Shown: in pieces, positions 3,096 through 51,163 of the stretch | How positions within the stretch are numbered: the stretch's first letter is position 1 | Layout: each line of letters opens with the position of its first letter | Assembly (NCBI GenBank): GCA_964603475.1 | Contig: CAZRVG010000001.1 | Span: 63,988 to 127,987 of the forward strand | DNA length: 64,000 nucleotides | DNA from: an uncultured Candidatus Saccharibacteria bacterium | GTDB lineage: Bacteria; Patescibacteriota; Minisyncoccia; Minisyncoccales; UBA5738 | Direction: 5' to 3' | Made by a program: the position numbers and the translations under genes | Notes under the pieces: generated by a model | What the model was told of the DNA's origin: nothing | Seen by the model: only the letters and a program-made list of their open reading frames with translations | The model's database searches: none

Positions 3096-4220
3096 TTAAC
3101 GGTCGCGCTTCCCGGCGATAAATTCTTCCACCATCTCATAGGCTTGAGAATCGGTAAATTGAGTCGGGGGGTGCTTCATAAAATAGGATGACGGACTTGT
3201 TAGCGGGCCGCCGATTCCCCGATCTTGGGCAAGTTTTACCATACGGATGGCATCAATCACCACGCCGGCAGAATTGGGCGAATCTTCCACGCTCAAACGA
3301 AGCTCCAAATCAATGGGCACATCGCCGAATTTTCTTCCCTCCATTCTGATATAACAAATTTTGTTATCTTTTAAAAACGGCACCCAATCCGACGGCCCGA
3401 TATGCAAATTGTCATAGCTCAAGCGATTTTTGAGCTGGGACTCCACGCTTTCGGTTTTGGAAATTTTTTTTGATTTCAAGCGTTCGCGGCTAAGCATGTT
3501 CAAAAAGTCGGTATTGCCGCCGAAATTCAATTGATAAGAGCGATCAATCGCCACGCCGCGGTTGGCGAATAATTTGCTAAGCGTTCGGTGCACGATCGTG
3601 GCGCCAATTTGCGATTTAATGTCGTCGCCGATGCAGGGAATGTTTTTTTCTTTAAACTTATTCCCCCACGCCTCGTCGGAAACAATAAATATCGGCATGC
3701 AATTGACAAATCCGCAGCCGGCGTCCAAGGCGGCTTGGGCGTATTGTTCGGCGGCTTTTTGCGACCCCACCGGCATATAGCTGATTAAGACGTCGGCTTT
3801 GACCTTTTTTAACTCTTCGGCGATATCAACCGGCTTTTCATTCGAAACCGCGAACGTTTGGTCTTCGGGGTAATTTTTCATATGATCGGCGACACCGTCC
3901 AACACCGGCGCCATTTGCACTTTCACGCCGATTTGAGGCACGTCTTTGCAAAACACTTTGGTACAGTTGGGCTTTTCAAAAATCGCCCGCGCCACATCTT
4001 TGCCCACCTTGCGCCGATCAATATCAAACGCCGCCACGATCTCAATATCCCGCGGCGCGTAATCGCCGATCACGTTGTGCATCAAGCCGGGCACGGTTTC
4101 ATCGTCCTTGCCGATATATTTATAATAAGTTATCCCCTGCACCAGGCTGGAACAGCAATTGCCGATGCCGGCAATCGCCAACCGAATTTTTTTTCCTCGC
4201 GCGTTTGTATTTTCTTCCAT
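3096..4220 (-). CDS. myo-inositol-1-phosphate synthase (archaeal/bacterial short type)
   Basis: Rossmann GIGNCCSSLVQG, conserved MIPS core (NGSP-like, SYQLNFGGNTDF region); ORF open to 4292 but Met at 4220 fits family length. Confidence 0.8.
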   Translation of the reverse strand: MEENTNARGKKIRLAIAGIGNCCSSLVQGITYYKYIGKDDETVPGLMHNVIGDYAPRDIEIVAAFDIDRRKVGKDVARAIFEKPNCTKVFCKDVPQIGVKVQMAPVLDGVADHMKNYPEDQTFAVSNEKPVDIAEELKKVKADVLISYMPVGSQKAAEQYAQAALDAGCGFVNCMPIFIVSDEAWGNKFKEKNIPCIGDDIKSQIGATIVHRTLSKLFANRGVAIDRSYQLNFGGNTDFLNMLSRERLKSKKISKTESVESQLKNRLSYDNLHIGPSDWVPFLKDNKICYIRMEGRKFGDVPIDLELRLSVEDSPNSAGVVIDAIRMVKLAQDRGIGGPLTSPSSYFMKHPPTQFTDSQAYEMVEEFIAGKRDR

Positions 4221-4364
4221 ATTTTTGTTAATATGTATTATATATTGATTATTTGTTTTACGACCTACAATTATTTTACCACCATAAAACACTCTGTCAA
4301 ATTGAATTATAAAAATGAATTACGATCTTATCAACTTTTGATCTATACTTTTGAATTTTGACTT

Positions 4365-4688
4365 TTGACTTTTGATTTACTTTTTATGCTTCCCATCCAA
4401 AAATTGGAAAAATCAAACACCAAAGAAAATCTCTGGATCTACATCCTGGCGCTTTTGGATAAAAAGCCGCTCTACGGCTGGGAAATTCCCAAATTGATTG
4501 AGCAAAATTTTGGCTTCCGGCCGGGAAAAATCACTCCCTACCGGGTTTTTTACCGCCTCCAAGCCGATGGATTCGTCACGAGCGAAATGGAAAACCGAAG
4601 GCGGATATACAAAATCACCCCAAAAGGCAAAAAGGAATTGACCGCCGCTAAATCATTCTATAAAAATACCCTTTCAAAATTGGATTAG
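4365..4688 (+). CDS. PadR family transcriptional regulator
   Basis: winged-helix PadR signature LYGWEI...GKITPYRVFYRLQADGFV...RRIYKITPKGKKEL. Confidence 0.7.
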   Translation: MTFDLLFMLPIQKLEKSNTKENLWIYILALLDKKPLYGWEIPKLIEQNFGFRPGKITPYRVFYRLQADGFVTSEMENRRRIYKITPKGKKELTAAKSFYKNTLSKLD

Positions 4689-5450: not shown

Positions 5451-5641
5451 ATCGCTTGAAATGGATAGAATTGTTTCGTAATAAGTTTAATTTTCAGTTG
5501 CCAGTTTTCAATTTTCATTGAATGTTCCATTTAGCCAATGTGCCAAACAAATACATTTGCGTTTTGTTTGTTAATTGGCTCATTGATTTAATTGATAATT
5601 CAATGAAAACTGATAATTGAAAACTAAAAACTATTAATCTC

Positions 5642-6248: not shown

Positions 6249-6280
6249 ACACAAAAGCGCCGCAAGGCGCTTTTGTGTTT
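6249..6280 (+). terminator. Intrinsic terminator after efp
   Basis: acacaaaagcgcc-gcaa-ggcgcttttgtgt then T-rich. Confidence 0.7.
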
Positions 6281-6326
6281 ATATGTTTATATGTTTATAT
6301 GATTATATGATTATATGATTATATGT
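6277..6326. repeat. Tandem 8-mer microsatellite (ATGTTTAT)x3 (ATGATTAT)x3
   Basis: read directly; same ATGATTAT/ATGATTAA arrays recur at 19945-19984, 39275-39312, 61441-61480. Confidence 0.85.
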
Positions 6327-6330
6327 CCAA

Positions 6331-6651
6331 TTATTCTTGGGCGATTTTTTTTGATTTTTCTTCTTTTTTGGGCTTTTTGGGCGCGCCTTTCCGTCCCTTG
6401 GCTTTGTTTTTCAAATCAATCATTTTTTCCAAAAGGGCGACAATACCGGCAATACTGATGGAAAAAGCCGATACTTTGCTTTTCACTTCACCGATCGTGT
6501 TTTTCGCCTCATCAACCGTATTTTTAATTTCGTTTTCAATGGAAATAATTTTGCGCATAATTCTAATCGTGAAAATTAAAATCACGAACAAAATCGCAAT
6601 CCACAAAAAGAAAAACAGCGATCCCAAAAAATAAAAAAATGTTTCCACCAT
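6331..6651 (-). CDS. Small membrane protein (one TM helix plus coiled-coil, Lys-rich tail; DUF948-like)
   Basis: hydrophobic N-terminus, KKPKKEEKSKK tail. Confidence 0.4.
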   Translation of the reverse strand: MVETFFYFLGSLFFFLWIAILFVILIFTIRIMRKIISIENEIKNTVDEAKNTIGEVKSKVSAFSISIAGIVALLEKMIDLKNKAKGRKGAPKKPKKEEKSKKIAQE

Positions 6652-6748: not shown

Positions 6749-7267
6749 TTATGGCTGGAATAATTCTTCGGGAATAACGCGAACTTCGTCCACGCCGGCA
6801 AATTGTTTTGCCGTGGCTTCAATTTGCGCGCGCAAAATCCCCGCGCGGCAAGAGCCGCCGCTTGTTTTGTTTCGCGGATCGGCAAATTCCAAAGTTAAAA
6901 CTCCATCGTTCAAATTCGCGCCCTTTAATTCCAACCCTTCAAGCGGAAATTCGGTGGCAACGCCCGCGGCAATTTCTTCTTCTGACAACTCCCCCTTCAT
7001 CAATAGATTTATCGCGCCTTGAACCGGCGTTTGGCTTGCCGTGATTTGGCGTCCGACCGCAACCAACCCCGCCGGAGAACACATTGTATTGCCCGATTCA
7101 TCCTTGTCGTTGGCGGGATTATAATAATAGAGCAAAATTTCGCGCGCTTGCGCTTGGCCATTCCCCGTCGGCGCGCCAACTTTATCCTTTTGATAATTTT
7201 GCCAACCCGCCCATCCAATCGCAACAATAACAAAAGCGGATAAAATAAAAACCATTATTTGTTTCAT
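6749..7267 (-). CDS. GerMN domain-containing lipoprotein-like protein
   Basis: signal/TM N-terminus, GerMN-like core (ILLYYYNP...NLNDGVLTLEFADP). Confidence 0.45.
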   Translation of the reverse strand: MKQIMVFILSAFVIVAIGWAGWQNYQKDKVGAPTGNGQAQAREILLYYYNPANDKDESGNTMCSPAGLVAVGRQITASQTPVQGAINLLMKGELSEEEIAAGVATEFPLEGLELKGANLNDGVLTLEFADPRNKTSGGSCRAGILRAQIEATAKQFAGVDEVRVIPEELFQP

Positions 7268-7872
7268 TTTGATATATTTTTTATTAAGGCGGCAATTTCG
7301 GGAAAAATTTCCAGATTGAAATGCCCACTGTCTTGAAAAATCATTGGTTTTGCCGTTGGCAGCGCTTTTTTGTATTTTTCAAGCTGCAAAAACGGCACCA
7401 CCGGATCATCTTGGCTGTGGAACAAATAAATTTCGGGCGCTTGGCGGGCAAATTCGTCCAAAGATTTTTCCAATGAAAAACTTGCCAGCTTTTCGTCCAT
7501 ATTGTCATCGTCAAAAGGAGCGCCGATTAAAATCGCGGCTTTGATTTTTTTGTTGACTTTGTTTTCCGAAAAATATTTTGCCAAAAATATGCCGCCCAAA
7601 GAATGGCCGATTAAAATCGCGCCGTCATCGGTCAATTCCAATATCCTCTCAAACCAAATCTTCCATTCCCCGTATCGCGCGTTGGATCCGTTGGGCATTC
7701 GCGGCGCCAGCACGTCAAAATCCCCGCCCAAATCATCGGGTAAGCCGTTTTTCCACTCTTTATGCGGCCGCAAACATTCCAAATCAATTTTTTTGTTTTT
7801 TAGGCAAGAAATATACTCTTCATAGCTTTCAAAAGTGTTCCCGCCATGGATCAAAACCACTTGCTGTTTCAT
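7264..7872 (-). CDS. Alpha/beta-fold serine hydrolase (RBBP9/YdeN-like family)
   Basis: VVLIHGG...GHSLGG nucleophile elbow; start set at MKQQVVLIHGG (ORF open to 7941 runs into the palindromic motif). Confidence 0.6.
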   Translation of the reverse strand: MKQQVVLIHGGNTFESYEEYISCLKNKKIDLECLRPHKEWKNGLPDDLGGDFDVLAPRMPNGSNARYGEWKIWFERILELTDDGAILIGHSLGGIFLAKYFSENKVNKKIKAAILIGAPFDDDNMDEKLASFSLEKSLDEFARQAPEIYLFHSQDDPVVPFLQLEKYKKALPTAKPMIFQDSGHFNLEIFPEIAALIKNISK

Positions 7873-7895: not shown

Positions 7896-7941
7896 ATGTA
7901 TATACATACAAAAACGAATGTATATACAAATGTATATACAT
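7896..7941. promoter_or_regulatory. Cluster of ATGTATATACAT 12-bp palindromes (candidate operator), copy 1 of 3
   Basis: catgtatatacat at 7896-7907 and gaatgtatatacaaatgtatatacatt at 7916-7941; near-identical paired site at 29467-29492 and 46190-46214. Confidence 0.5.
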
Positions 7942-7955
7942 TCAAAATTCGCGGA

Positions 7956-8138
7956 TTAGAATTCGGCGTTTTGATCGCCCCTTTTCATCCGCTTTTTGCA
8001 GCCGCAAGAACAATCCTCGGAACATTGGCAGCAATGAAAACAAACCGCCGGATTGCACGGACAGGCGTCTTGTTGGTTTTCCAGCGGCATTTTGCAGATT
8101 TTGCACTTGTCAAATTCTTGTTGCGGATCAATAAACAT
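7956..8138 (-). CDS. Small cysteine-rich protein (13 Cys in 60 aa; metallothionein/zinc-ribbon-like), speculative
   Basis: CKICK...CPCNPAVCFHCCQCSEDCSCGCKK. Confidence 0.3.
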   Translation of the reverse strand: MFIDPQQEFDKCKICKMPLENQQDACPCNPAVCFHCCQCSEDCSCGCKKRMKRGDQNAEF

Positions 8139-8184
8139 ATGTTTTTATTAATTTTTAATTTGAAATTTTTAATTTTTAATGGCT

Positions 8185-8967
8185 TTATTCGTCAAAATTT
8201 TTGGCTCGAGCTTTGAGGCGTAATTTTAGGTTTTTAATGGGATGCAAAGATATTTTTTCAATGGAATTTTTTTCATAGTAAGAAAAAGGGTTGTCCAAAT
8301 CACGCAAAAGATAAATCATATATGAAAGAATAAAGGCCACAAACAAAATAAAAAACATGCTTTCGTGAAAAGGATCAAGGCGCAAAAAAATCATCCCGCC
8401 AATCAAAAGAATGCTGATCGTCTCGGCAATCGCGTAGGCGGATTCGGAAAAACTTGTTTCGCGAATGGTGCGTATGCGCAAAACTTGTTTGCGAATTTCG
8501 GCCTGTTCGTGCTTTAGGCGGGTGATAAAAGTGGGCTGGCTGTTTTGATCAATCGCGACAAAATACGCGGTGAATTTATCGATTGATTCCATTATCTTTC
8601 TGGTGCGGTTTTTTTTGTCAACCCACGCCAAAAGATCGTTGGTAAATTTTTGACAATACTCAAAGCCAACGCGCCCGGCGGGATCTTGTTTGCTTTTGTG
8701 AAGATAAATAAACTCATCGGCAATGGAATCAATGTTTGACGCGATTATCCCGGGAATTTTTTCGGCTTCTTTGTAATCGGCCAGCACTCCGGAGAGAATA
8801 AAACCGATTAAAAATATATCGGCCGAAATCAGCGCGCCGAAAAACGTGCTAAAACTCAAAAATTCAAGCCCGAAATAGTGGCTGGCCGCCTTTAATATCG
8901 CCACAAGAAACAAGATCGGGATTATCCGCAGCATCAAGCGCCATTTTTTGTTTAAAAATTTCTCCAT
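8185..8967 (-). CDS. Bestrophin-like (UPF0187) membrane channel family protein
   Basis: 4 predicted TM segments and LRDLDNPF motif resembling bestrophin I/L-x-NPFG region. Confidence 0.45.
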   Translation of the reverse strand: MEKFLNKKWRLMLRIIPILFLVAILKAASHYFGLEFLSFSTFFGALISADIFLIGFILSGVLADYKEAEKIPGIIASNIDSIADEFIYLHKSKQDPAGRVGFEYCQKFTNDLLAWVDKKNRTRKIMESIDKFTAYFVAIDQNSQPTFITRLKHEQAEIRKQVLRIRTIRETSFSESAYAIAETISILLIGGMIFLRLDPFHESMFFILFVAFILSYMIYLLRDLDNPFSYYEKNSIEKISLHPIKNLKLRLKARAKNFDE

Positions 8968-9091: not shown

Positions 9092-10309
9092 TTAGTCGAC
9101 AAATGTGAGCGCCTTGCCGAATTTGGTTCCCCTGCCGGTGCGCCCGATGCGATGAATGTAATCTTCATAGGTATCGGGAAGATCATAGTTGATCACGTGG
9201 CTGATATCGGAAATATCCAGCCCGCGCGCCGCCACGTCGGTGGCAACCAAAATGTTAACAAAGCTTTTTTTGAACATATCCAGCGCTTTTTGCCTTTTGG
9301 AATAGGTTTTGTTGCTGTGAATCGACTCGGCTTTAAAGCCTTTTTTAACCAATGTTTGGCGCAAAGACTCAACCCCGCGCTTTGTTCTGCCAAAAATCAA
9401 GACTTTGGCAAAATCATTTTGCTCCAAAAGTCCTTGCAAGGTTTCCACTTTGCTTTTTCCGTTCGCAAGCCTCACCACGTCTTGATCCACGTTTTTTGAA
9501 GTGTCGCGCGTTTTGATTGAAATTTTTTGAGGCTCGTTTAAAAACTCGCAAATAAGCCTTTCAATCTCGCGATTCAATGTCGCCGAAAAGAAAAGCGTTT
9601 GCTTGTCTTTGGGCATTCCGGCAATCAAAAGACGCATATCTTCAATAAATCCCATATCCAGCATGCGATCGGCTTCATCCAAAACAATCGTGTTGAATTT
9701 GGCAAGATTGATGCGCCGGCGATTAACCAAATCCTTTAGCCTTCCGGGAGTTCCGATGATAAATTGGTTGTCATGGCGCAATTCATAGATTTGGCGCGAA
9801 ATGTTGGCGCCGCCGATGCAGCACGCCGAATAGATGTGCAACCCCTTGGAAAGGACGCGCAATTCTTCGTTTATCTGCATCGCCAATTCGCGCGTGGGCG
9901 CCACGACCAAAACCTTGCTGTTTTTATCCATTATGACCTTGTTGATCAGCGGGATAAGAAACGCCCCGGTCTTTCCCGTGCCCGTGTCGGCAATACCCAC
10001 CACGTCGCATCCAGCAAGAATATGCGGAATGGCTTTGGCCTGGATGGGAGTCGCGGACACAAAACCGCGGTTTTGCACCTGATGCGCCACCTCTTTTAAA
10101 AGCCCAAAATCGGCGAATTTGCATTCGGCCGCCAAAACTTCGGCTTCATCTTCAACAATCGCCTTGTTCACGAATTTTGAAGGATCAATTTTCGCGCCGC
10201 GAAAATTTCTTTTTTTCGCGAATCGAAAGCGGTTTTTGTTGGAACCGAACGATCGCGATTGCGAGAAAGATCTCTTGAATCTTCCCCGGCTTGCTGTGCT
10301 TGTCTGCAT
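9092..10309 (-). CDS. DEAD-box ATP-dependent RNA helicase
   Basis: Q-motif, GTGKTGAF (Walker A), DEAD, SAT, HRIGRTGR; Arg-rich N-terminal extension (start uncertain). Confidence 0.9.
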   Translation of the reverse strand: MQTSTASRGRFKRSFSQSRSFGSNKNRFRFAKKRNFRGAKIDPSKFVNKAIVEDEAEVLAAECKFADFGLLKEVAHQVQNRGFVSATPIQAKAIPHILAGCDVVGIADTGTGKTGAFLIPLINKVIMDKNSKVLVVAPTRELAMQINEELRVLSKGLHIYSACCIGGANISRQIYELRHDNQFIIGTPGRLKDLVNRRRINLAKFNTIVLDEADRMLDMGFIEDMRLLIAGMPKDKQTLFFSATLNREIERLICEFLNEPQKISIKTRDTSKNVDQDVVRLANGKSKVETLQGLLEQNDFAKVLIFGRTKRGVESLRQTLVKKGFKAESIHSNKTYSKRQKALDMFKKSFVNILVATDVAARGLDISDISHVINYDLPDTYEDYIHRIGRTGRGTKFGKALTFVD

Positions 10310-15697: not shown

Positions 15698-15832
15698 TAT
15701 ACCAGCTATGCTGTTATTCTTTATGTAGAAGCATGCAATAATAACTTTGAGCGCGCTTCGGTGCTCCCCCGGAGAATCCGGGGCTTCAGCCGGGGAATTC
15801 CACGCTCTCAGATCGCTGCTTCAACAAAGATC

Positions 15833-19939: not shown

Positions 19940-19984
19940 ATTTATCTTTTGTTTAAATGTTTAAATGATTATATGATTAAATGA

Positions 19985-20854
19985 TTAAATGACCCTTTCT
20001 ATCGCGCGCAATTTTGCCGAAGCCGCGCGCGAATTGGCGTCAATTTCCTTGGTCGAAGGAACAATCGGCTTTTTAAACAGCAGTTTTGCCCTGCCGGATT
20101 CGGCCAGCTTTTTAAATTCTTCTTTTACGACCTTATCCTCCAAAGAATGGAAAGATATCGCCGCCATTCGCCCCCCCGCGTTCAAAATTTCAAAACCGGA
20201 CACAATCCCCCGCCTGATATTTTCAAACTCATCGTTAACCGCGACGCGCAACGCCTGGAAAATTCTCGCCCGCATGCTTCGAATACGCGGATAAGGCAGA
20301 CCAAAAATTATTCGCGCCAGATCCCGGGTGGTCGTTATTTCTTTTTTGCTTCTGGCATTCACAATCGCGCGGGCAATTTTTTTGGCGCTTTTTTCTTGGC
20401 CGAAATTTTTAAAAATTTCGGTCAAATCCTTCTCGGAGCATCGGTTAATCATTTTTGCCGCGTCAACCCGCGAATCGCTATCATATCTCATATCCAGCGG
20501 TTCGTCTTTGGCAAAAGAAAACCCTTTGCCGCTTTCATCCAAATGCCATGACGACATCCCCAAATCCAGCAATATTCCTTTTATGTTTTCAAAGTCGCGC
20601 GATCGCGCGATATCGGCAATATTGGCATAGGAATCGTTAACAATCGCCAATCTCGGATTTGCCCTCGCTTCTTCGGGCAAAGACAATATGTTTTCTTTGT
20701 CCCGCTCAATCCCCAACACTCTTCCTTTGGGCGCGGTTTTTTCCAAAATCGCCAAACTGTGCCCGCCGCGGCCAAAAGTGCAATCAATAAAGTTCTCATT
20801 GGGTTTGGGATCAAGCGCGGCAATCGTTTCGTTTAATAAAACCGGAATATGCAC
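19985..20854 (-). CDS. rsmH: 16S rRNA m4C1402 methyltransferase RsmH (MraW)
   Basis: MHIPVLLNE...DCTFGRGGHS...DLGMSS signature. Confidence 0.9.
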   Translation of the reverse strand: MHIPVLLNETIAALDPKPNENFIDCTFGRGGHSLAILEKTAPKGRVLGIERDKENILSLPEEARANPRLAIVNDSYANIADIARSRDFENIKGILLDLGMSSWHLDESGKGFSFAKDEPLDMRYDSDSRVDAAKMINRCSEKDLTEIFKNFGQEKSAKKIARAIVNARSKKEITTTRDLARIIFGLPYPRIRSMRARIFQALRVAVNDEFENIRRGIVSGFEILNAGGRMAAISFHSLEDKVVKEEFKKLAESGRAKLLFKKPIVPSTKEIDANSRAASAKLRAIERVI

Positions 20855-21389: not shown

Positions 21390-21459
21390 AAGGATAATTC
21401 AAAAGTCAAAAGTCAAAAGTTAAAATCTTTCCACTCTTTCCCACAATCAACCACCATGT

Positions 21460-21501
21460 CCCACATATTAATACTCTACTCCCATAAAAAAACAATGTCA
21501 A
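21460..21501 (-). promoter_or_regulatory. Candidate sigma70-like promoter of mraZ operon
   Basis: TTGACA then 17 nt then TAGAGT/TATTAAT on minus strand, then TTTTGAC heptamer repeats before the ATG. Confidence 0.3.
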
Positions 21502-24997: not shown

Positions 24998-25150
24998 ACA
25001 CCAACATTCTGCCCTGTCCCGCACCGTGATTTGCCTTTATATTTTATGCTTTAGCATGGCAAATCTCTGGTGCAGGAAGAATGTTGGAATGTTTGCTAAT
25101 CTGATTCTTTAATTCATTTGCCAGAGGACAAAATTCAGATAGCCGGCAAA
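24998..25150. mobile_element. MITE-like inverted-repeat element, family 1, copy A (with conserved 55-bp 3' extension)
   Basis: ccaacattct...agaatgttggaatgtt terminal inverted repeats, internal caccgtgatttgcc / ggcaaatc and atgc-ttta-gcat hairpins; near-identical to copies at 28649-28803 and 39097-39195. Confidence 0.65.
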
Positions 25151-25172
25151 TATTATTATGCAATAAAATTTA

Positions 25173-28648: not shown

Positions 28649-28803
28649 ACATTCCAACATTCTGATTAGCCGCGCGTCGTGATTTGCCTTTGTGTTTTAT
28701 GCTTTAGCACGGCAAATCTCTGATGCGCGAATAATGTTGGAATGTTTGCTATTCCGATTCTTTAATTCATTTGCCAGAGAACAAAATTCAGATAGCCGGC
28801 AAA
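28649..28803. mobile_element. MITE-like element, family 1, copy C (with 55-bp extension, overlaps TspO 3' end)
   Basis: acattccaacattct...ataatgttggaatgtt, extension tgctattccgattctttaattcatttgccagagaacaaaattcagatagccggcaaa. Confidence 0.65.
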
Positions 28804-29307
28804 AGTTACCCACGCGATGTAGGGTAAAAGCAGATATGCCGCGGGTTTTGAAACGCGCCAAAAGCTTGCAACCGTCCATGCAATCGCCGCCCACAAAACC
28901 AGCAATTCAAAAAACGCCAACCCGGGAGATTTTAGCCCGAAGAATATCACCGACCAAAAAACGTTTAAAACCAGCTGGGCGGCAAAAATGGATATGGCGC
29001 CCCGCTTGCGCCAAGGGTCAAAAGAAATTTTTTGCAAAAGCCTCTCCCACGCCGTCCCGATTTTCCCTTGAACCGATTCTTCGGCTTCCTCTTCTTTTTC
29101 CCAAACCAAATACAGGGCAAACCCCATCAAAAGATATAGAATCGTCCACACCGTGCCGATAACCTCGCCCGAAGGCGTCCACGAGGGTTTGGCAAGCGCT
29201 TGATACCAACCGCCCACCGACGACGCCGTGGCCAATCCGCCAATCGCGCCCGCCGCCTGGCAAACCAAAATTGAAACAATCAATTTAAAAATATTTCTCT
29301 TTTTCAT
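28762..29307 (-). CDS. tspO: TspO/MBR family tryptophan-rich sensory protein
   Basis: five TM helices with conserved Trp-rich motifs (GGWYQ...KPSWTP...WTILY...FFGLKS..LLLPYIAW), plus an acidic loop insertion. Confidence 0.8.
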   Translation of the reverse strand: MKKRNIFKLIVSILVCQAAGAIGGLATASSVGGWYQALAKPSWTPSGEVIGTVWTILYLLMGFALYLVWEKEEEAEESVQGKIGTAWERLLQKISFDPWRKRGAISIFAAQLVLNVFWSVIFFGLKSPGLAFFELLVLWAAIAWTVASFWRVSKPAAYLLLPYIAWVTFAGYLNFVLWQMN

Positions 29308-29466
29308 AATTTGTTATTTTATTTCTTCTTACAGGTAGCTTGATTTTAATTCTTTTTAACTTTTTTATCAATTTCCTCGCGATTCCGACCCGCAACTATC
29401 CGCCATATTCCATATGGAATATATGAATAAAAAACAAGCTGGCAAAACCCAATCTTTTGAAATTTT

Positions 29467-29492
29467 GAATGTATATGCAAATGTATATACAT
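29467..29492. promoter_or_regulatory. ATGTATATACAT-type paired palindrome, copy 2
   Basis: gaatgtatatgcaaatgtatatacat. Confidence 0.5.
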
Positions 29493-30157: not shown

Positions 30158-31267
30158 TTACAATCCTTCTCCGCGTAATTGTTCCAAGAGCTCTTTTTGT
30201 TTTTTGGTGAGTTTTTTGGGGATGGCGATTTCGGTTTGGATATACATATTGCCGCGGCCAAAGCTGTTGAATCTGCGGATTCCTTTGCCGCTCACGCGGA
30301 AAATTTTGCCCGATTCGGTGCCGGAGGGCACTTTGAGCAGAATGTCTTTGCCGTCAATCGTGGGCACGTCAATCTCGCCGCCCAATGCCGCGAGCGAAAG
30401 CCCGATATCGCGCGCCACAAACAAGTCATCGCCTTTTCTTTCAAACACAGGATGAGCTTTTAGAAACACCCGCACGTACAAATCTCCGGTTTTGCCGCCT
30501 TTTTTGCCGGCTTCGCCTTTGCCTTCCAATTTGATTACCTGATTATTGTCAACTCCGGCGGGAATTTCCACCGCGATAGCTTCCTCGGTTTTAACGCGTC
30601 CTTCACCATGGCACACATTGCACGGCTTTTCCGGCCGGTATCCCTCGCCTTTGCATTCGGGGCACACCACGTACTGGGTAAACGACCCCAAAAAAGTTTT
30701 TTTAACTTGCTGAACTTGCCCCGTGCCGCGGCAAGAAAAACATTCTTTTATTTTCGTTTGCGGTTCGGCGCCCGATCCGTCACAGCGCGGGCAAACCGCC
30801 TGCTTTTGGATTTTGAACTCTTTTTTAATTCCCGTAAACGCCTCCTCCAAAGTAATTTCGGCATCCACGCGAATATCGCGCCCTTTTTTATGATCGCGCC
30901 GCCGCCGCGTTTGGCCGCCGCCAAAACCAAACATCTCTTGCATTATATCGCCCAAATCCTCAAACTGCACGTCAAATTCCGCGCCGGGCCGGCCCCAGAA
31001 CCAGCCGTCCTGCCCCGCTTGAGCGCCGCCAAAACCGCCAAACCCTCCGGCGCCGGAATTGTTAAACGCGTTGCCGAATTGATCATATTGGCTTCGCTTT
31101 TGCTTATCCGAAAGGATTTGGTAGGCCTCGTTGACCTCCTTGAATTTTTCCGCGTCGCCCCCCTTGTCGGGATGGTATTTGTGCGCCATGGCGCGATAGG
31201 CTTTTTTTATCTCATCGGCGCTCGCGGACTTCTGCACTCCCAAAATTTTGTAATAATCCTTACTCAT
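30158..31267 (-). CDS. dnaJ: Chaperone DnaJ
   Basis: J-domain HPD, G/F region, four CxxCxGxG zinc-finger repeats, C-terminal domains. Confidence 0.9.
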
Positions 31268-31390
31268 ACACTCAGTTTCCAGTTTTCAGTTTTCAGTTTT
31301 CAATAAATTTTCATTGGTCATTGAATCATTGAACATTCAATGAAAATTGATAATTGAAAAATGAAAATTTTGAAACCAAAAATTCAAACT
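31268..31390. promoter_or_regulatory. Intergenic palindrome plus heptamer-repeat element (family 2) upstream of dnaJ
   Basis: cagttttcagttttcagttttcaataaattttcattg...cattcaatgaaaattgataattgaaaa. Confidence 0.6.
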
Positions 31391-33356: not shown

Positions 33357-33419
33357 AATTTTATATGATTTATTATATTTATACTTTTTTATTTTTTGCA
33401 AATCTTTTAATTACTGGAA

Positions 33420-33560
33420 GCTTTTAGTCCATTGAAATTTTCAGTTTTCATTGAATTTTCAATATAACAATTACCAAACATAATTCAGCATTTATGTTTA
33501 GATAATTGGCAGAATAATCATTCATTGAAAACTGGAAACTGATAATTGAAAACTGTTTCC
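33420..33560. promoter_or_regulatory. Family 2 intergenic element upstream of dnaK
   Basis: attgaaattttcagttttcattgaattttcaat...core...attcattgaaaactggaaactgataattgaaaactg. Confidence 0.6.
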
Positions 33561-34783: not shown

Positions 34784-34839
34784 ATAATCCCTTTGCTTTC
34801 TTTTTATTTCCCGCCGCGCTTGCGCGGTTTTTTAATACC

Positions 34840-34980
34840 TCATTAGTTTTCAGTTTCCAGTTTTCAGTTTCCAATGAATGGCCATTTTGCCAATTATCAA
34901 ACAAATTACCAAACTTCTGTTTGAAAAATGAAACATTGAAAACTCAATGAAAACTGATAATTGAAAACTGAAAACTTTGT
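34840..34980. promoter_or_regulatory. Family 2 intergenic element between grpE and the DUF3467 gene
   Basis: cagtttccagttttcagtttccaatgaatggcc...cattgaaaactcaatgaaaactgataattgaaaactgaaaact. Confidence 0.6.
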
Positions 34981-39034: not shown

Positions 39035-39096
39035 CTTTTAACAGAATCATTATTCGCTTATTCGTGCGAATATGCCCATAACTTCAATCCAACAAA

Positions 39097-40515: not shown

Positions 40516-40998
40516 TTAACGGGTGACGCAGATCTCTGTGCTATCGGCGATGGCCGGCTCAATACCATTGGGCGCGCAAACCGTCACCCGCCCATTGGTG
40601 TCCTGATGGACTTTATATTTGGTATTATAGTTTGCCTCATCCCATGCGACACCATCTGTCGGATCAACTGGAATTTCGGAAATATATGTGGGCACAATGC
40701 ATTGGCGAATGTCATAGCCATCTGTACTTTTCATTTCGGTTGCTGCTTCGGGGATTGCGCCCGCGGTGCAAGTGAATACGCCTTTGTTGTCGGCGATATT
40801 TTGGCCGATGGCGTTTAATATGGCGTTGACATTGCTCACCCGCTGGCTGTTTCGGCCCTGCGCGAATTGGCGCGCCGGATTGATGGCGATAATCACCACC
40901 GCCGCCAAAAGCGCGATCAAGCCGATCACCACCAAAATTTCAATCAGAGTGAACCCCGATTGATTTTTGTTTATTTTTTTGTTTTTTGTTTTTTTCAT
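40516..40998 (-). CDS. Type IV major pilin (prepilin with N-methylation motif)
   Basis: Lys-rich leader then GFTLIEILVVIGLIALLAAVVI class III signal; start set at MKKTKNKK. Confidence 0.8.
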   Translation of the reverse strand: MKKTKNKKINKNQSGFTLIEILVVIGLIALLAAVVIIAINPARQFAQGRNSQRVSNVNAILNAIGQNIADNKGVFTCTAGAIPEAATEMKSTDGYDIRQCIVPTYISEIPVDPTDGVAWDEANYNTKYKVHQDTNGRVTVCAPNGIEPAIADSTEICVTR

Positions 40999-41039
40999 TT
41001 TATTTTTTGTTATTTTTTGCAAACTTTCTTCGACCTTTG

Positions 41040-41426
41040 TTAAAACTCCTCCCAATTGGTGATGTTAATTTCCCCGTTTTGCGATTCGGCGGTAATTTTT
41101 AAATTCGCGAATGAATTTTTCCATTTCGCGGACGCGATGATGGTGTATGGATTGCTTCCGTCAATTTGCAAGGTTTGGCAATTTTGCCACATTAAAACAT
41201 TTTCATTTTTGGCAATTCCCAAAAGCGCCTGATGGGCGCATCCTTGCGCCATTGCCGCGGCAATATTTTTGTTCTCTCGCGCCAAAGAAGCAAACCTGCC
41301 CCAAAACGCAGCGCGAGAGATTGATGCCGCCAGCACCAGCAAAATTCCCGAAACCAAAATTGAGGAAATTAACGCTGTAAATCCGTCTTGGCCGCGAATT
41401 GTTTTTGAGCGGTTCGCGCTTTTCAT
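41040..41426 (-). CDS. Minor pilin/pseudopilin
   Basis: GFTALISSILVSGILLVLAAS N-terminal pilin-like helix. Confidence 0.55.
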   Translation of the reverse strand: MKSANRSKTIRGQDGFTALISSILVSGILLVLAASISRAAFWGRFASLARENKNIAAAMAQGCAHQALLGIAKNENVLMWQNCQTLQIDGSNPYTIIASAKWKNSFANLKITAESQNGEINITNWEEF

Positions 41427-41809
41427 TTGGGCAGATAATAAGTCATCAAAAAATCTTGCGAAAAATCTTTGCCCGCGCGATCCTTGGCGGTTAACACGAA
41501 TTTCGCGCGCGCCAATCCATTTTGCAAATCCACAATTTCAAAATCGCCGATCGCGGTTTGCGAATTGTTTAACGCCCTTCCGGCAAGCATCAATGTTCCG
41601 TCAATGTTTTCAAACGCCGTGATATCTTTTTCCCGTTCAATCTTGGCCAATAAAAATTCACCCTCAAAACGCGCCATAATTCGCGCGTCGTTTTTTCCCA
41701 TGGTCTCGGTAATCGCAAAAACCGCGGCAAACAATCCGGAAAAAATAAAGCCGGACAACGCCAAATAAACTAAAAATTCAATGATGGTAAACCCTGAATT
41801 ATTTTTCAT
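41423..41809 (-). CDS. Minor pilin with prepilin-type N-terminal cleavage/methylation domain
   Basis: SGFTIIEFLVYLALSGFIF. Confidence 0.65.
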   Translation of the reverse strand: MKNNSGFTIIEFLVYLALSGFIFSGLFAAVFAITETMGKNDARIMARFEGEFLLAKIEREKDITAFENIDGTLMLAGRALNNSQTAIGDFEIVDLQNGLARAKFVLTAKDRAGKDFSQDFLMTYYLPK

Positions 41810-43275
41810 TGTGCCGTAATAATTGAAATATAGCTCTTCCCCGCGCCGTCAATTGACGCAACATATAAATAATTACCCTCACAATCCAACGCTACTCCAC
41901 CAATTCCGCCAGCCTGACCGGGTAAACCAACCATTTTCTGTTCCACCGCATTGGTCGGATTGAAAATATCTAATATTCGCAGACTGCCGCCTTGGCTGGC
42001 ACTTCCCGCCAACACAAACGCCAGATCGTCTCTAACGAGTAAATCGTTAACACTAAATGGATCGCCGTCCTCCGAATAATTGCCCAGCATATCTATTGAC
42101 GATTGGCCATGGTTGAGCAAATAAAATTCCGGCGAATTGGCAATATATGTCCTGCCAAGATAAATTCTATTACCAATAATTTGAACACTTTTGCCATAGC
42201 CCCAATTGGTCTGATCGGGAAGCAAATCATAGCTGGCAACCAAAGTCGGCGCCAAGGGATCGGCAATATTAAGAATAATCAATTCCCGCGCGCTATCCGC
42301 TGTCGCCAAATAGGCATAATCACCTTTTATATAGACGTCATTAACTTTCGCGCCGATTTCAAAACCGGAAATAAGAGATGGATTATTGATATCGCCAACA
42401 TCAATAATATTGAATTCCGAACAATTATTATCGCGCTCCAATCCCAAATAAATGTAATTATTTTTATGAAAAATAGCGGTAGCCGACTTTTCACAATCAC
42501 CATTATTAATGTTTCCAAGTTCCAATGAGGCAATAAGTAGTCCATTATTGTTAGCAATTTGCAACTGATTCACTGAACTTTTACCAGCCAGATAGATAAA
42601 AGCATCGTTTACTGTAAGCGAGTTTGATTTTTTGATATTAGCGCCGCCCTTTTGAAGCAATAATGGATTTTCGAGATCAATAATATCCAAAATAAAAAAT
42701 ACAGGATCAGTACTAGTCGCAGTGTCATTTATAGAAATATAAAGTTTCCCCTTGTAAGCATCAAGGTCGCTGATTTTATCCCAATCAACTTCGGCAAATT
42801 TGGAAAAATCAATTACTTTTTTTATTTGCGGATTTTTCCAGTCGCCGGTTAAATTTGAATCGCAAGTATCGTTTCCCGCGGTATTGTTATAATCGGCAAT
42901 CAATGTTTCCAACTCGACTTTTTGCGGCCGGTTGCCAATGTTAAAATCAACGCTTGCGTTAACTTTTTTGACAAAAAACGAATGGGGCGATACCTCAACC
43001 TTGGCGTTAAAAATTCCTTCTTGCGTGCTGGTGGCGTTTACCAGCCGAAAATCATTGAGCGCCAAATCCCGCTGACACCAGAGCATTCTTTGCGCCAAAT
43101 CAAGCGCTTCCGAATTTTGCGCCGCGTCCGCGGTGAAAAATTGCCCGCCAAAACACATCAAAACCGCCGCGCTCACGGCAAAAATCATCACCGCCATCGC
43201 CAGCAAAACTTCCATCGTCAAAAATCCCGATTGATATTTTTTATAATCTCGCGAGCTCATAAAAATTATTGCCAA
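41806..43275 (-). CDS. Large minor pilin with beta-propeller-like repeat body (PilY1-like tip adhesin candidate)
   Basis: QSGFLTMEVLLAMAVMIFAV pilin helix followed by 430 aa with repeated hydrophobic-D/N-G strand motifs. Confidence 0.5.
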   Translation of the reverse strand: MAIIFMSSRDYKKYQSGFLTMEVLLAMAVMIFAVSAAVLMCFGGQFFTADAAQNSEALDLAQRMLWCQRDLALNDFRLVNATSTQEGIFNAKVEVSPHSFFVKKVNASVDFNIGNRPQKVELETLIADYNNTAGNDTCDSNLTGDWKNPQIKKVIDFSKFAEVDWDKISDLDAYKGKLYISINDTATSTDPVFFILDIIDLENPLLLQKGGANIKKSNSLTVNDAFIYLAGKSSVNQLQIANNNGLLIASLELGNINNGDCEKSATAIFHKNNYIYLGLERDNNCSEFNIIDVGDINNPSLISGFEIGAKVNDVYIKGDYAYLATADSARELIILNIADPLAPTLVASYDLLPDQTNWGYGKSVQIIGNRIYLGRTYIANSPEFYLLNHGQSSIDMLGNYSEDGDPFSVNDLLVRDDLAFVLAGSASQGGSLRILDIFNPTNAVEQKMVGLPGQAGGIGGVALDCEGNYLYVASIDGAGKSYISIITAQ

Positions 43276-43763
43276 TCAACGCGGCCGGATTCATCAACCG
43301 AAATATCGGCGCGATGGCCGAAATTATCTTGCAAAGTGATCGCCAAAGGATCGGCGTTTCCCGAAGGCGGATAAAAAATCGCGTCCGCGGTTTGAGGCAA
43401 AACAACGCAAACCGCGCGATTTTCAAATTCAACCACTTGATCAAAATCGGAATTTCGGCTCAAAAAATCCGCGCCTTGAAAAATAACAATCTCCGATTTG
43501 CCAGGATCAAAGCGCACCCCGTGCGCCGCCGCCCGCGCGCAAGAATCCCCGCGGCAAACTCCGGCAATCGCCTGCGCCCGGGCATAACGCAAAGCGGATA
43601 GCACCGCGCCGCGATCCGCCGCAAACGACCAAAAACGGGCGTTTTGCGTGTCGGAAAACACGCAAAAACACGCGCAGAGCGTCAACAGCCCCGCCACAAC
43701 TAAAAATTCAAAAATTGAAAATCCCGATTGTAAATTATTTTTGCAGTAATTGCGTGATGCCAT
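43266..43763 (-). CDS. Pseudopilin (GspH/FimT-like)
   Basis: QSGFSIFEFLVVAGLLTL; start set at MASRNY. Confidence 0.6.
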   Translation of the reverse strand: MASRNYCKNNLQSGFSIFEFLVVAGLLTLCACFCVFSDTQNARFWSFAADRGAVLSALRYARAQAIAGVCRGDSCARAAAHGVRFDPGKSEIVIFQGADFLSRNSDFDQVVEFENRAVCVVLPQTADAIFYPPSGNADPLAITLQDNFGHRADISVDESGRVDWQ

Positions 43764-44898
43764 AAATAGGTGTGATAATCGCCACCGCCACAAATCCCAC
43801 CAACAACCCCATAAAAACCATCAGTATCGGTTCCACACTCACGGATAAATTTTTCACCGCGGCATTCATTTCATCTTCACAGATTTGCGCCAAATAAACG
43901 AGCGAATCTTCCAAGTGTCCCGACAATTCGCCGGCATAAATCATTTGCGCGGCCAATACCGGAAAAATTTTTTCTTCTTCCATATTTTTACCGATTGATT
44001 TTCCTCGGGCAACTTCTTGGGCAATCTTTTCAAGCGCGGCGCGGTAAGCCAAGCTACCCGACGTTTTTCCGGCAATTTCCAGCGCCGAGACAACCTGCGA
44101 CTTGCCCTTTAAAAGCAAGGAAAGCGCGCGGCTTAAATTGGCAATGTGATAATTTTTAAATATCGGGCCGACCAGCGGCAAAGCAAGCAAACAACGAGCA
44201 GAAAGCATTTGTAATTTCTCAATTCTTGCCAAAACAAGCGACAGCGCGCCGGCCAAAATAAACGCGGCTAAAATAAACAGCCAGTAATCGCGCGCCGCCG
44301 TGCCAACCGCGATTAAAATTTCGGTGGCCAGCGGCAGATCTCCTTTTAGGCTCGCGAAAATCGGTAAAATTTTGGGGAAAATATAAACAGAGAGCAAAAT
44401 CACAACGCCGATCGTGGAAATTAAAATAAAAACCGGATAAACCAGCGCGCCGGTGATATTCCTTTTTAACTCCCGCCTTTTTTGCAGTTCGCCGGCAAGA
44501 TACTGCAAATTTTGCGGCAAAGCGCCGCCGGCTTCGCCGACGCACACTATATTCACCGCAAAATCGCCAAAAGCACGAGATTCTTCCATGGCTTTGGCAA
44601 GCGGCTTCCCCCGCTCCACGGTAAAACGCAAATCAGCAATCAACTTTTTCGATCCCGATGAAACGGCTTGTTTCTCCAATATTTCGAGCGCAACAACAAT
44701 TGAAATTCCAGCTTTAATCAATATGGCTAATCTTTTGATAAAAATAATTCGTTCGGTTTCTGAAATCCGCGGGCGGATGGCGGATTTTATCGCCGCGGCA
44801 ACGGCATCGCCAAGCACCGCTTCCTGCCGCGGCGCCAGTAAAAGTATTGTTTTTTTAACAGATAGAACAATTTTGTTCATAATTTTTGACAATCTCAT
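43735..44898 (-). CDS. pilC: Type IV pilus assembly platform protein PilC / GspF family
   Basis: two GspF repeats, three TM segments. Confidence 0.85.
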   Translation of the reverse strand: MRLSKIMNKIVLSVKKTILLLAPRQEAVLGDAVAAAIKSAIRPRISETERIIFIKRLAILIKAGISIVVALEILEKQAVSSGSKKLIADLRFTVERGKPLAKAMEESRAFGDFAVNIVCVGEAGGALPQNLQYLAGELQKRRELKRNITGALVYPVFILISTIGVVILLSVYIFPKILPIFASLKGDLPLATEILIAVGTAARDYWLFILAAFILAGALSLVLARIEKLQMLSARCLLALPLVGPIFKNYHIANLSRALSLLLKGKSQVVSALEIAGKTSGSLAYRAALEKIAQEVARGKSIGKNMEEEKIFPVLAAQMIYAGELSGHLEDSLVYLAQICEDEMNAAVKNLSVSVEPILMVFMGLLVGFVAVAIITPIYGITQLLQK

Positions 44899-46097
44899 TT
44901 TATCCGCAAAATTTCTTCAATTGTGGTAATGCCGGATTGAACTTTTATAAATCCGTCCTCAATCATCGGCATCATTCCGTGCGCAACGGCAATGCGTTTC
45001 AAAACCGCCGAAGATTCGCGGCGCAAAATCGCCTCCCTGATTTCGGAATCCAAAATCAAAACTTCGTGGATTCCCGTGCGCCCCGAATATCCCGACTCAT
45101 TGCATTGAGAGCATCCCCGTCCGTAAAAAAATTTTTGACCGGCAAAAATTTTTTTTGGAAACAACAGATTCAAATTATCAGCCTCCGCCCGGCTGATTAT
45201 TTTTTCCGTTTTGCAACGCGGACATATTTTTCTCACCAAACGTTGGGCAATAATAATATTGACCGTGGAAGCGATCAAATAACTTTCCGCCTTCATATCC
45301 AAAAGGCGCGGCAAAGCGGTTGCCGCGTCGTTGGTGTGTAAAGTTGAAAGGAGCAAATGACCGGTGAGAGCCGCGTTCACCGCGATGCCCGCGGTTTCCG
45401 AATCGCGAATCTCTCCCACCATGATAATGTTGGGATCTTGGCGCAATATTCCCCGCAGTCCGGAGGCAAAAGTCAGTCCGCCGCGCGAATTTGTTTGAAT
45501 TTGCCGAATTCCCGAAATTGAATATTCAACCGGATCCTCAATGGTCACAACAGAAACTTCTTTGGTATTCAATTGCTTAAGCAAGGCATAGAGCGTAGTG
45601 GTTTTTCCGCTGCCCGTGGGACCGGTGGCCAAAATCATTCCGTGGGACTTTTTTGCCGCAGATTGAATTTTGGCATTATTTTCTTTTGAAAAACCGATTG
45701 TTTCCAAATTGAAACCCTCGGCGTTGTCGGAAAGCAAACGCAAAACCGCGTTTTCTCCGTGATATGTGGGCGCCACCGACACCCTCACGTCCACGGGACA
45801 ATCTTTTGCCAAAATTCTAAAGCGGCCGTCTTGCGGGATTTGATGCTCGTCGGTGCGCAATCCCGCCAAAATTTTAACGCGGCTTATGATTTCTTCTTGT
45901 TTTTGCCGCGGCAAAAAATAATAATCTTCCAAATAGCCGTCCACCCGATAGCGCACACGGATATTTTCGTTTTGCGGATCAATATGAATATCGCTAGCAC
46001 GCAATTTATGAGCCTCCTCAATGATTGAATCAATGATTTTTACCGCCGAAACATCCGCCCCGTCGAAAATCTCGGTTGCCATTGAACCGCTTGGCAT
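44895..46097 (-). CDS. pilB: Type IV pilus assembly ATPase PilB / GspE family (ATPase domain only)
   Basis: Walker A GPTGSGKTTT, Asp box, Walker B, His box, tetracysteine CxxC...CxxC. Confidence 0.9.
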   Translation of the reverse strand: MPSGSMATEIFDGADVSAVKIIDSIIEEAHKLRASDIHIDPQNENIRVRYRVDGYLEDYYFLPRQKQEEIISRVKILAGLRTDEHQIPQDGRFRILAKDCPVDVRVSVAPTYHGENAVLRLLSDNAEGFNLETIGFSKENNAKIQSAAKKSHGMILATGPTGSGKTTTLYALLKQLNTKEVSVVTIEDPVEYSISGIRQIQTNSRGGLTFASGLRGILRQDPNIIMVGEIRDSETAGIAVNAALTGHLLLSTLHTNDAATALPRLLDMKAESYLIASTVNIIIAQRLVRKICPRCKTEKIISRAEADNLNLLFPKKIFAGQKFFYGRGCSQCNESGYSGRTGIHEVLILDSEIREAILRRESSAVLKRIAVAHGMMPMIEDGFIKVQSGITTIEEILRIK

Positions 46098-46189
46098 ATT
46101 GGATAATTAAAATTATAAAATTAAAAACAAATTACTCCATTATAAAACACCGCCAAACCGATTACAATAGCCCGCCCCCGCAAATTTTT

Positions 46190-46214
46190 GAATGTATATA
46201 CACGTGCATATACA
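46190..46214. promoter_or_regulatory. ATGTATATACAT-type paired palindrome, copy 3 (upstream of pilB)
   Basis: gaatgtatatacacgtgcatatacat. Confidence 0.5.
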
Positions 46215-46359
46215 TTACTCCGCCGGTAAATTATGTTTAACCATAGACAAATTTACACATCAAAAAATAAAAAAGCGAAATATAAACAAAACCCGCCTTC
46301 GCGCGGGGCTATGGCGGGTTGAGAATCGCTTTCGCGTAAAGCTAGGGCGTATCAAAGGC

Positions 46360-51148: not shown

Positions 51149-51163
51149 CCTAACATTTATCAA

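Follow-up and report, generated by a model that had tools for sequence, protein, structure and literature searches.

What places one short palindrome, in paired form, before three unrelated genes of a 64,000-nt stretch of DNA (hereafter the window)? A sequence search confirmed the observation made in a preliminary description of this DNA. The 10-bp palindrome TGTATATACA forms three doublets, whose cores span 7919-7940, 29470-29491 and 46193-46214, and a solo unit, ATGTATATACAT, stands at 7896..7907. With its flanks, doublet 1 (7916..7947) reads GAA-TGTATATACA-AA-TGTATATACA-TTCAAAA, doublet 2 (29463..29492) reads TTTTGAA-TGTATATGCA-AA-TGTATATACA-T, and doublet 3 (46185..46215) reads TTTTTGAA-TGTATATACA-CG-TGCATATACA-T. 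Two nucleotides, not three as originally described, separate the 10-bp cores, and the period is 12 bp. Each doublet can accordingly be divided into two abutting 12-bp palindromic subsites (7918-7929 and 7930-7941; 29469-29480 and 29481-29492; 46192-46203 and 46204-46215). Exact matches to ATGTATATACAT occur at 7896, 7930 and 29481, and units with one or two mismatches to it at 7918, 29469, 46192 and 46204. The solo unit stands on the hydrolase side of doublet 1, ahead of the start codon; its distance from the doublet is 22 bp rather than 24, which puts it outside the 12-bp register. The description also gave all three sites the same orientation, which carries no information because the whole element is palindromic; the TTTTGAA flank stands on the left at sites 2 and 3 and on the right, as TTCAAAA, at site 1. 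Nearly all genes of the window lie on the minus strand.

The sites are far in excess of chance. Allowing up to two mismatches, ATGTATATACAT has 12 matches in the window against 1.19 expected, a count reached in 0 of 100 shuffles. The relaxed doublet TGTATATA-N6-TATATACA, with up to three mismatches, retrieves the three sites and no others, against an expectation of 0.07 from whole-window shuffles. Under a first-order Markov model trained solely on the window's AT-rich intergenic DNA, 0.063 doublets are expected and three were reached in 0 of 300 runs. All three doublets are intergenic, in a window of which 20.6% is intergenic (P ~0.009). The copies are near-identical (0-1 mismatch), and the window holds no degenerate doublet copies.

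Pfam searches bear out the identities proposed for the hydrolase, tspO, pilB and PadR genes, and the distances from doublet to start codon are as claimed for the three genes downstream. At the first locus, doublet 1 lies 45 nt from the start codon of an alpha/beta hydrolase gene (Ser_hydrolase family by Pfam; 7264..7872, minus strand), which is followed by a GerM-domain gene (6749-7267). On the other side, a conserved 60-aa Cys-rich ORF (7956..8138, minus strand), for which a Pfam search returned no family, ends with its stop codon 14 nt before the doublet 1 core (7940). At three loci of the same species (L159, L166, L175), a plus-strand ORF at 7896-8216 was called in place of this ORF. Four related species have the same arrangement, in which a Bestrophin-like gene is followed by the Cys-rich ORF, the hydrolase gene and the GerM-domain gene, and the Cys-rich protein is conserved in its orthologues in L172, L173 and L174. 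The doublet lies between the Cys-rich ORF and the hydrolase gene in the window and in L174 (hydrolase protein identity 74%). L172 (79% protein identity) and L173 (77%) carry unrelated sequence where doublet 1 sits, and the site is absent. L172 is the Minisyncoccales MAG GCA_049302335.1, whose gene order around the hydrolase matches that of the window; the nearest named homologues of PilB and the hydrolase belong to Candidatus Pacebacteria/Paceibacterota and Minisyncoccales. The DNA, which also has matches among metagenome contigs of several samples, is on these grounds from a Paceibacteria-type member of the Patescibacteria.

The second locus is that of tspO (28762..29307, minus strand; Pfam TspO_MBR, E = 7e-49), whose start codon is 162 nt from doublet 2. 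Between them lies a predicted promoter, TTGCCA-16-TATATT (29418..29445, minus strand), which rests on a consensus match at 10 of 12 positions and places the centre of doublet 2 ∼69.5 nt upstream of the predicted transcription start. A second palindrome, ATATTCCATATGGAATAT (29405..29422), overlaps the predicted -10 element and is found alongside the doublet in relatives too. In L149, alignment shows that the doublet upstream of the tspO orthologue (65% protein identity) has been kept despite divergence of the flanking intergenic DNA, which includes indels.

The third locus is a type IV pilus cluster (40516..46097, minus strand), assigned from Pfam matches for pilB and pilC, from syntenic loci with N_methyl pilins and from ORF translations. 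It comprises pilB (T2SSE/PilB by Pfam; 44895-46097), pilC (Pfam; 43735-44898) and, beyond pilC down to 40516, ORFs whose translations have prepilin-like N-termini, all on the minus strand. Doublet 3 is 95 nt from the pilB start codon, and its centre is ∼71.5 nt upstream of the start predicted for a promoter TTGTAA-17-TATAAT (46139..46167, minus strand; 10 of 12 matches) that is conserved in L170. In L170/L171, the pilB orthologue is preceded by a near-perfect 40-bp palindrome, GAATGTATATATTCAAATATATATTTGAATATATACATCC, exactly as long as an array of three units would be, in which the inner unit is degenerate and the inner junctions have changed. The window and L170 thus both have an array upstream of the conserved pilB promoter, at differing distances, and the pilB orthologues in L167 and L168 have no array upstream.

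The position of doublet 1 raises the possibility that the palindrome is itself a promoter. Its flank and outer half-sites read TTGAAT-17-TACATT towards the hydrolase, with the solo unit just downstream, and, by a promoter scan, the 45 nt that precede the start codon accommodate no other promoter; site 3 gives the same reading on the plus strand. The element could then be a symmetric, bidirectional sigma-70 promoter (TTGRAT-17-TACATY on both strands) that needs no dedicated regulator. However, the 17-bp ‘spacer’, at 2 bits per position, is far more conserved than the would-be -35 and -10 hexamers, which is the reverse of a promoter, and some 40% of sites have TCC flanks that turn the -10 hexamer into TACATC, without the essential final T. 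In addition, the better orientation at sites 2 and 3 faces away from the genes, and tspO and pilB have separate, better predicted promoters, the pilB one conserved. A promoter without a regulator is therefore very improbable.

Site 1 also raises the possibility of a signal in RNA. It scores as terminator-like, with a 13-bp stem (3 G-C pairs among 13) followed by TTTTT right after the Cys-rich ORF, and it folds at -14 to -17 kcal/mol (z ∼-6), as would suit a hairpin acting in processing, stability or termination of transcripts. Across the sites, however, predicted folding stability ranges from -17 to -6 kcal/mol, and on the gene strand it is weak at sites 2 and 3 (z -1.7 and -1.95). The G+C-rich stem plus U tract of an intrinsic terminator is not what the sites present, only site 1 being flagged and sites 2 and 3 not, and an Rfam search at the sites gave no match. 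The natural variants at sites 2 and 3 are uncompensated and weaken the hairpin; each leaves a mismatched A-C on one strand but a G-U pair on its complement, and the strand favoured in this way is not the same at the two sites. Moreover, a simple RNA hairpin needs neither arms that are themselves palindromic nor the three-unit arrays found in relatives (L122, L142), which form no simple hairpin. Conservation concerns the sequence rather than the base pairing, an argument for duplex DNA as the target of a protein, and a role at the RNA level is highly unlikely.

Genomic comparison extends the element well beyond the window. Searching metagenomes with the flanked pattern gave 37 loci, ∼25 of them on Patescibacteria-like contigs and the rest eukaryote-like microsatellites; the core plus TTTTGRA flanks recurs in many contigs of several related organisms. 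Alignment of 22 non-redundant sites defines the full site as a 36-bp palindrome, tTTTGrA-TGTATATACA-nn-TGTATATACA-TyCAAAa, in which one flank was set by the search pattern and the free flank has the same bases. Some relatives carry three-unit arrays (L122, L142/L153/L156). A scan with the unflanked core, one genome per species, found at least 12 loci in the Patescibacteria MAG SCTJ01 and, among the matches listed, at least five in CAZFZI01 and at least nine in RFLC01, which is labelled Pacearchaeota. A flank in RFLC01 encodes a dyskerin/Cbf5-type pseudouridine synthase, consistent with an archaeon. The flank type varies by lineage, being TTTTGRA, CTAA or AAARG. Of 20 sites on Paceibacteria-like contigs 19 are intergenic, as are, among the matches listed, 12 of 12 in SCTJ01 and 8 of 9 in RFLC01, the coding share of the contigs tested being 68-82%.

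On the Paceibacteria-like and CAZFZI contigs surveyed, the genes downstream of a site encode SNase nucleases (L142, L144), DpnI (L143), a PAS histidine kinase with a receiver protein (L125/L141), a PF20603 hydrolase (L133), a metallophosphoesterase divergent from an Eco57I-type methylase (L010/L148), an SPFH protein (L068) and another alpha/beta hydrolase (L064/L158). The last is not an orthologue of the window hydrolase. Several downstream proteins have no Pfam family, and some of these have N-terminal hydrophobic segments. Judged by the tspO, hydrolase and pilB orthologues, the sites are under constraint where they occur, but the target set changes its members.

The main rival to an operator is a REP- or MITE-like extragenic palindrome, spread or kept for reasons other than promoter-specific regulation, such as protection of mRNA 3' ends, attenuation or the binding of a nucleoid- or transposase-like protein. 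REP and BIME elements are imperfect extragenic palindromes of 20-40 bp in many copies. In favour of this rival, the site is an extragenic palindrome of ∼36 bp with near-identical copies, close relatives differ in its presence at the hydrolase locus, many copies lie 1-40 nt past the stop codon of the upstream gene, and site 1 is the terminator-like stem already described. In SCTJ01, a 46-bp version is near-identical at 12 loci among the matches listed, about three of them between convergent ORFs. Several of these features also count against the operator reading, as the uniformity of the copies is unusual for transcription-factor sites and typical also of repeated elements, the site is missing at some hydrolase (L172, L173) and pilB (L167, L168) loci, position relative to predicted promoters is uneven, and some SCTJ01 copies lie between convergent ORFs. 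REP sequences are, however, usually species-specific, whereas here the core and even the flanks are conserved across genera and lineages. Self-palindromic units repeated every 12 bp point to binding by a dimeric protein, copies are few (three in the 64 kb of the window), and no RAYT or IS200-like gene occurs in any annotated stretch. The stems are AU-rich and the consensus continues with A's, not U's, and the site upstream of the tspO orthologue has outlasted the sequence around it. A REP-like origin is thus unlikely; were it true, this would be an unusual repeated palindrome kept across lineages.

The analysis shows that the sites are real, non-random and intergenic, that they persist at orthologous loci and that they return in several lineages; that a protein binds them, in what stoichiometry, which protein this is and whether it activates or represses are matters that we infer. 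The reading that we favour, and consider reasonably probable, is that the sites are operators for a DNA-binding protein acting as a dimer of dimers and controlling a variable set of surface and hydrolytic genes. The operator would be an array of two 12-bp palindromic subsites with the core TGTATATACA, set in a 36-bp palindrome on double-stranded DNA and extended to three units in some relatives. One symmetric dimer would occupy each subsite, and neighbouring dimers would bind cooperatively. The preliminary description had proposed the operator of a dimeric factor: the operator part agrees with the enrichment, the intergenic position, the orthologous sites and the multiple copies in other Patescibacteria, and for the protein, a recognition unit made of the doublet plus TTTTGRA/TYCAAAA flanks suggests a tetramer of two dimers in place of a single one.

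In the window, the transcription units that a single small DNA-binding protein would co-regulate in this way are the hydrolase-GerM pair, tspO and the pilB-pilC-pilin operon. At the hydrolase, the protein would probably repress by occlusion, because the array leaves no space for a promoter of its own, TTGAAT-17-TACATT being part of the doublet and the solo unit following just downstream. At tspO and pilB, where the doublet is ∼70 nt upstream of the predicted start, the bound protein could activate, or could repress with the help of a second site. Among relatives, all promoter positions likewise being consensus predictions, the doublet centre in L129 is 64.5 nt upstream of the predicted start (promoter with 11 of 12 matches), and in L158, L123, L068 and L072 the outer half-site TATACA is the -35 hexamer of a predicted TATACA-16/17-TATAAT-like promoter. 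The hydrolase site of L174 looks alike by eye, with TATACA-16-TAAAAT preceded by TG. The doublet thus lies at about -65 to -85 at some genes and overlaps the -35 element at others, a geometry in which repression fits at some promoters and activation is possible at others. The notion of a small regulon of pilus, TspO and hydrolase genes survives as to the regulon, which would be neither small nor fixed, as the genes preceded by the site in relatives include nucleases, other hydrolases, a PAS kinase and DpnI.

Arrays of this kind have precedents. MetJ, Arc, CopG and the antitoxins of toxin-antitoxin systems use tandem-array operators of short palindromic subsites to which dimers bind cooperatively. 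The doublet shares with these the head-to-tail palindromic subsites and their variable number (two to three here), but differs in unit length and sequence. In architecture, the closest match is relO, the operator of E. coli relBE, which is bound by the ribbon-helix-helix (RHH) antitoxin RelB and consists of two abutting 12-bp palindromes, TTGTAATGACAT and TTGTAATTACAA, that is, four hexads with the core [A/T]TGT[A/C]A, on which two RHH dimers sit on one DNA face with no spacing tolerated between half-sites (PMC2812701). The doublet, ATGTATATACAA plus ATGTATATACAT, is likewise two abutting 12-bp palindromes without a spacer and with four hexads. Its hexad ATGTAT (complement ATACAT) fits the relO core at five of six positions, a resemblance of sequence only, and the mismatch falls on the terminal base, rated least critical (PMC2812701). 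Unlike relO, which occurs once and serves autoregulation at the promoter of its toxin-antitoxin operon, the sites here are dispersed before unrelated genes, have conserved TTTTGRA flanks, reach three units and have no adjacent RHH or antitoxin gene. By analogy, the element would work like a relO-type tandem operator; its membership of that family is putative, since no RHH gene adjoins the sites.

The cop box, operator of the BlaI-MecI-CopY family, is TACAnnTGTA with the consensus RNYKACANNYGTMRNY (PMC7253601). The junction between units here reads TACA-nn-TGTA, and TACAAATGTA at site 1 fits the 10-mer core KACANNYGTM. In contrast, the outer R/Y positions of the 16-mer RNYKACANNYGTMRNY differ, and the variants at site 2 (TGCA-AA-TGTA) and site 3 (TACA-CG-TGCA) break core positions. 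No gene for Penicillinase_R, BlaR1 or CopA was found in the Pfam-annotated parts of the window, which exclude, for example, 13.8-17.5 kb and 53.9-58.5 kb.

Which protein, then, would bind? Annotation of most of the window yielded PadR, MraZ, HrcA and a GAF-ANTAR protein as its only nucleic-acid-binding regulators. HrcA and GAF-ANTAR proteins have other targets, the CIRCE element and RNA, respectively. PadR and MraZ had both been put forward in the preliminary description, and neither suggestion fares well. MraZ is effectively excluded, as it has its own canonical GTGGG boxes upstream of mraZ, in the form of four GTGG[G/T/A] repeats with a 10-bp period (∼21425-21465), and the MraZ box (direct repeats of GTGGG-type pentamers, 10-bp period) is absent from the doublet.

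The PadR-family gene (4386..4688, plus strand), 3.2 kb away, encodes the one conventional DNA-binding regulator of the window to which no motif has been assigned; ATGT and ACAT do occur in the units, and a padR orthologue occurs in L174, which carries doublets too. The canonical PadR motif, however, is an ATGT/ACAT inverted repeat that requires a spacer of 8-10 nt (PMC3506622), whereas the spacer here measures 4 nt if taken inside one unit and 16 nt if taken over the whole doublet. No unit lies within 4230-4420, so that padR has no such site upstream, an autoregulatory site being common in the family. Instead, another conserved palindrome, TTTTACCATTGTAAAA, occupies the intergenic region between padR and the inositol-phosphate-synthase gene at three padR orthologues in relatives, with a degenerate form in the window. 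Orthologues of padR are also present in L172 and L173, where 36 kb show no unit, and ∼250 kb of motif-bearing loci contain no PadR homologue. PadR as the factor of the operator model is accordingly quite doubtful.

The surroundings of the sites are equally spare in candidates. No DNA-binding-protein gene adjoins the ∼25 Patescibacteria sites examined, so that the usual signature of autoregulation is missing, and no RHH, AbrB or antitoxin gene flanks these or the three window sites. Clustering of the ORFs that flank sites revealed no recurrent DNA-binding family, the sole recurrent family being receiver-only response regulators. A Pfam search of 150 small ORFs from motif-bearing loci (25 of 100 families listed) found no helix-turn-helix regulator family except two ECF sigma factors; these, in L136 and L095, are kilobases from the sites, and the window has none. 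Visual inspection of 72 nearby small proteins gave no candidate. Two HicB-like ORFs in the window (49379-49603 and 61792-62019; 74-75 aa) seem by eye too short for the usual C-terminal DNA-binding domain. LexA was set aside, with no lexA gene seen in the annotated parts of the window; the LexA motifs reported for Bacteroidetes, GGA-N5-TCC and CTAA-N5-TTAG, are unlike the doublet.

The element is best interpreted as a new operator and regulon whose mechanism belongs to a familiar type. Searches of the literature returned nothing relevant on TGTATATACA, on Patescibacteria or Saccharibacteria regulons, or on how Patescibacteria (Candidate Phyla Radiation) regulate transcription. The novelty does not lie in the mechanism, but the site has sharp limits, is conserved and is linked to pili and nucleases. 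A 36-bp site kept across species before pilB, two SNase genes, hydrolases, tspO and a sensor kinase offers an experimental handle, and a means of predicting which genes are co-regulated across hundreds of MAGs. The site is also directly testable, and these small genomes encode few DNA-binding proteins.

In Patescibacteria, type IV pili have a central part in taking up DNA and in attaching to the host. A bolder proposal is that the doublet is the operator of a conserved master regulator common to Patescibacteria, which would switch the host-attachment and scavenging programme of an episymbiont through type IV pili, secreted SNase-type nucleases, hydrolases, cell-envelope proteins and the PAS sensor kinase; this we regard as speculative and rather unlikely. 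On the same speculative reading, a related factor and site could be at work in a DPANN archaeon too.

In unrelated phyla, the identical doublet occurs, among the matches listed, 2-48 nt upstream of genes for MazE/AbrB-type antitoxins (L011, L017, L146/L150), BrnT toxins (L033, L083, L019/L080) and a MarR protein (L047). There it sits exactly where autoregulatory operators of small dimeric DNA-binding proteins are expected, which speaks for the operator reading. Judging from this placement, the identical sequence appears to have been adopted in these phyla as an operator-like site beside small dimeric regulators of more than one fold.

Accompanying the doublet, the pair of abutting 12-bp palindromic units that forms the putative operator, is a second, 18-bp palindrome, ATATTCCATATGGAATAT, which occurs twice in the window (29405-29422 and 39216-39233) against 0.08 copies expected. 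Beyond the window, it is found at L149, L125/L141, L136 and L170/L171. The two palindromes stand together upstream of tspO, both in the window and at its orthologous locus (L149), upstream of a PAS kinase gene in L125/L141, and upstream of pilB in L170, where ATATTCCATATGGAATAT also flanks a DUF4325 gene. This palindrome is probably the site for a second regulator.

The upstream regions of padR and mraZ carry motifs of their own. The intergenic region that padR shares with the divergently transcribed inositol-1-phosphate synthase gene contains a conserved block, TATTTTACCATTGTAAAAYACTNTGTCAAAT (about 4265-4300), which holds the palindrome TTTTAC-N4-GTAAAA and recurs in the padR upstream regions of the related species at L172, L173 and L174; this block is a candidate PadR operator. 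Upstream of mraZ, four GTGG(G/T/A) boxes with a 10-bp period (about 21425-21465, minus strand) constitute the canonical MraZ operator. Runs of three to five CTTTTGA heptads are also present immediately 5' of both start codons (4336-4380 for padR; 21394-21426, minus strand, for mraZ), and a similar run occupies 47375-47407, just past the 5' end of the ORF at 46846-47370.

The doublet core extends to other lineages. In RFLC01, a MAG labelled Pacearchaeota that encodes a Cbf5/dyskerin-type gene and appears to be a DPANN archaeon, the same core is present at no fewer than nine intergenic loci (L008, L009, L020, L067, L090, L104, L111, L114 and L120) with different flanks (AAARG), which could be a case of convergence or point to a family of factors common to both lineages. 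Genes for MazE/AbrB-type antitoxins, BrnT toxins or, in one case, a MarR protein in Bacteroidota, Cyanobacteriota and Gammaproteobacteria, among other groups, have the identical doublet 2-48 nt upstream (L011, L017, L146/L150, L033, L083, L019/L080 and L047), a position at which autoregulatory operators would be expected. Two Clostridia groups, one comprising L012 and 21 other Acutalibacteraceae/Clostridia loci and the other L013 and 21 other Fimenecus/Clostridia loci, carry a single doublet per genome, and its position is conserved. For one of the groups, this is 7-65 nt upstream of a gene for a ∼300-residue protein that, judged by eye, resembles RluD-type pseudouridine synthases; for the other, it is about 330 nt upstream of a response regulator gene, Spo0A-like by the same visual criterion. 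Finally, a gammaproteobacterial MAG (L057) has two doublets with reverse-complementary flanks at both ends of a ∼4 kb segment (106-127 and 4091-4112), an arrangement that looks like the terminal inverted repeats of a mobile element.

The Patescibacteria MAG SCTJ01 contains a 46-bp element in near-identical copies, organized as TGCTATACTAA-TGTATATACA-CG-TGTATATACA-TG-TGTATATACTT and starting with the extended -10-like sequence TGCTATACT. At seven loci (L018, L039, L044, L055, L056, L071 and L095), it flanks paralogous genes whose products share a common N-terminus (M.PNCQQI...), vary at their C-termini and match no Pfam family. At least five of these loci have the TGCTATACT end pointing away from the gene, and a palindrome, GGTACGTACC, is often found beside the element.

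A 60-residue ORF with 13 cysteines (7956-8138, minus strand) separates the Bestrophin-like gene from the hydrolase gene; it is conserved at the protein level in four species (L172 at 9755-9937, L173 and L174, in addition to the window) and has no Pfam family. At L159, L166 and L175, which come from the same species as the window, an opposite-strand ORF (window 7896-8216) is called there instead.

Several other repeats populate the window. A quasi-palindromic composite element, roughly 150 nt long and present in 10-11 intergenic copies, is built from repeats of the heptad TTTTCAG, the palindrome CATTGAAAATTCAATG and repeats of the heptad CTGAAAA (799-951, 5477-5638, 31262-31375, 33410-33560, 34833-34982, 35452-35602, 36324-36466, 51143-51297, 53788-53935 and 56066-56216); its TTGAA/TTCAA half-sites are similar to the doublet flanks. 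Three intergenic spots (6260-6344, 19942-20002 and 39256-39324) carry tandem 8-nt repeats, TGTTTATA/TGATTATA. A ∼155-nt repeat with GAATGTTGGAATGTTTGCTA has three long copies (25001-25155, 28654-28808 and 39089-39202) and shorter ones (core also at 27475 and 40345), one copy overlapping the 3' end of tspO. Next to a HicA/HicB-like pair lies a perfect 112-nt direct repeat (61610-61721 and 62362-62473), and related hairpins, AAATCCGGTGAGGTTTGACCTCACC, are located at 39224, 40395 and 61544. The window also holds an Rfam match to the DUF3800-V RNA (69.5 bits; 15727-15823, plus strand), which adjoins a DUF3800 gene inside a type I restriction-modification cluster.
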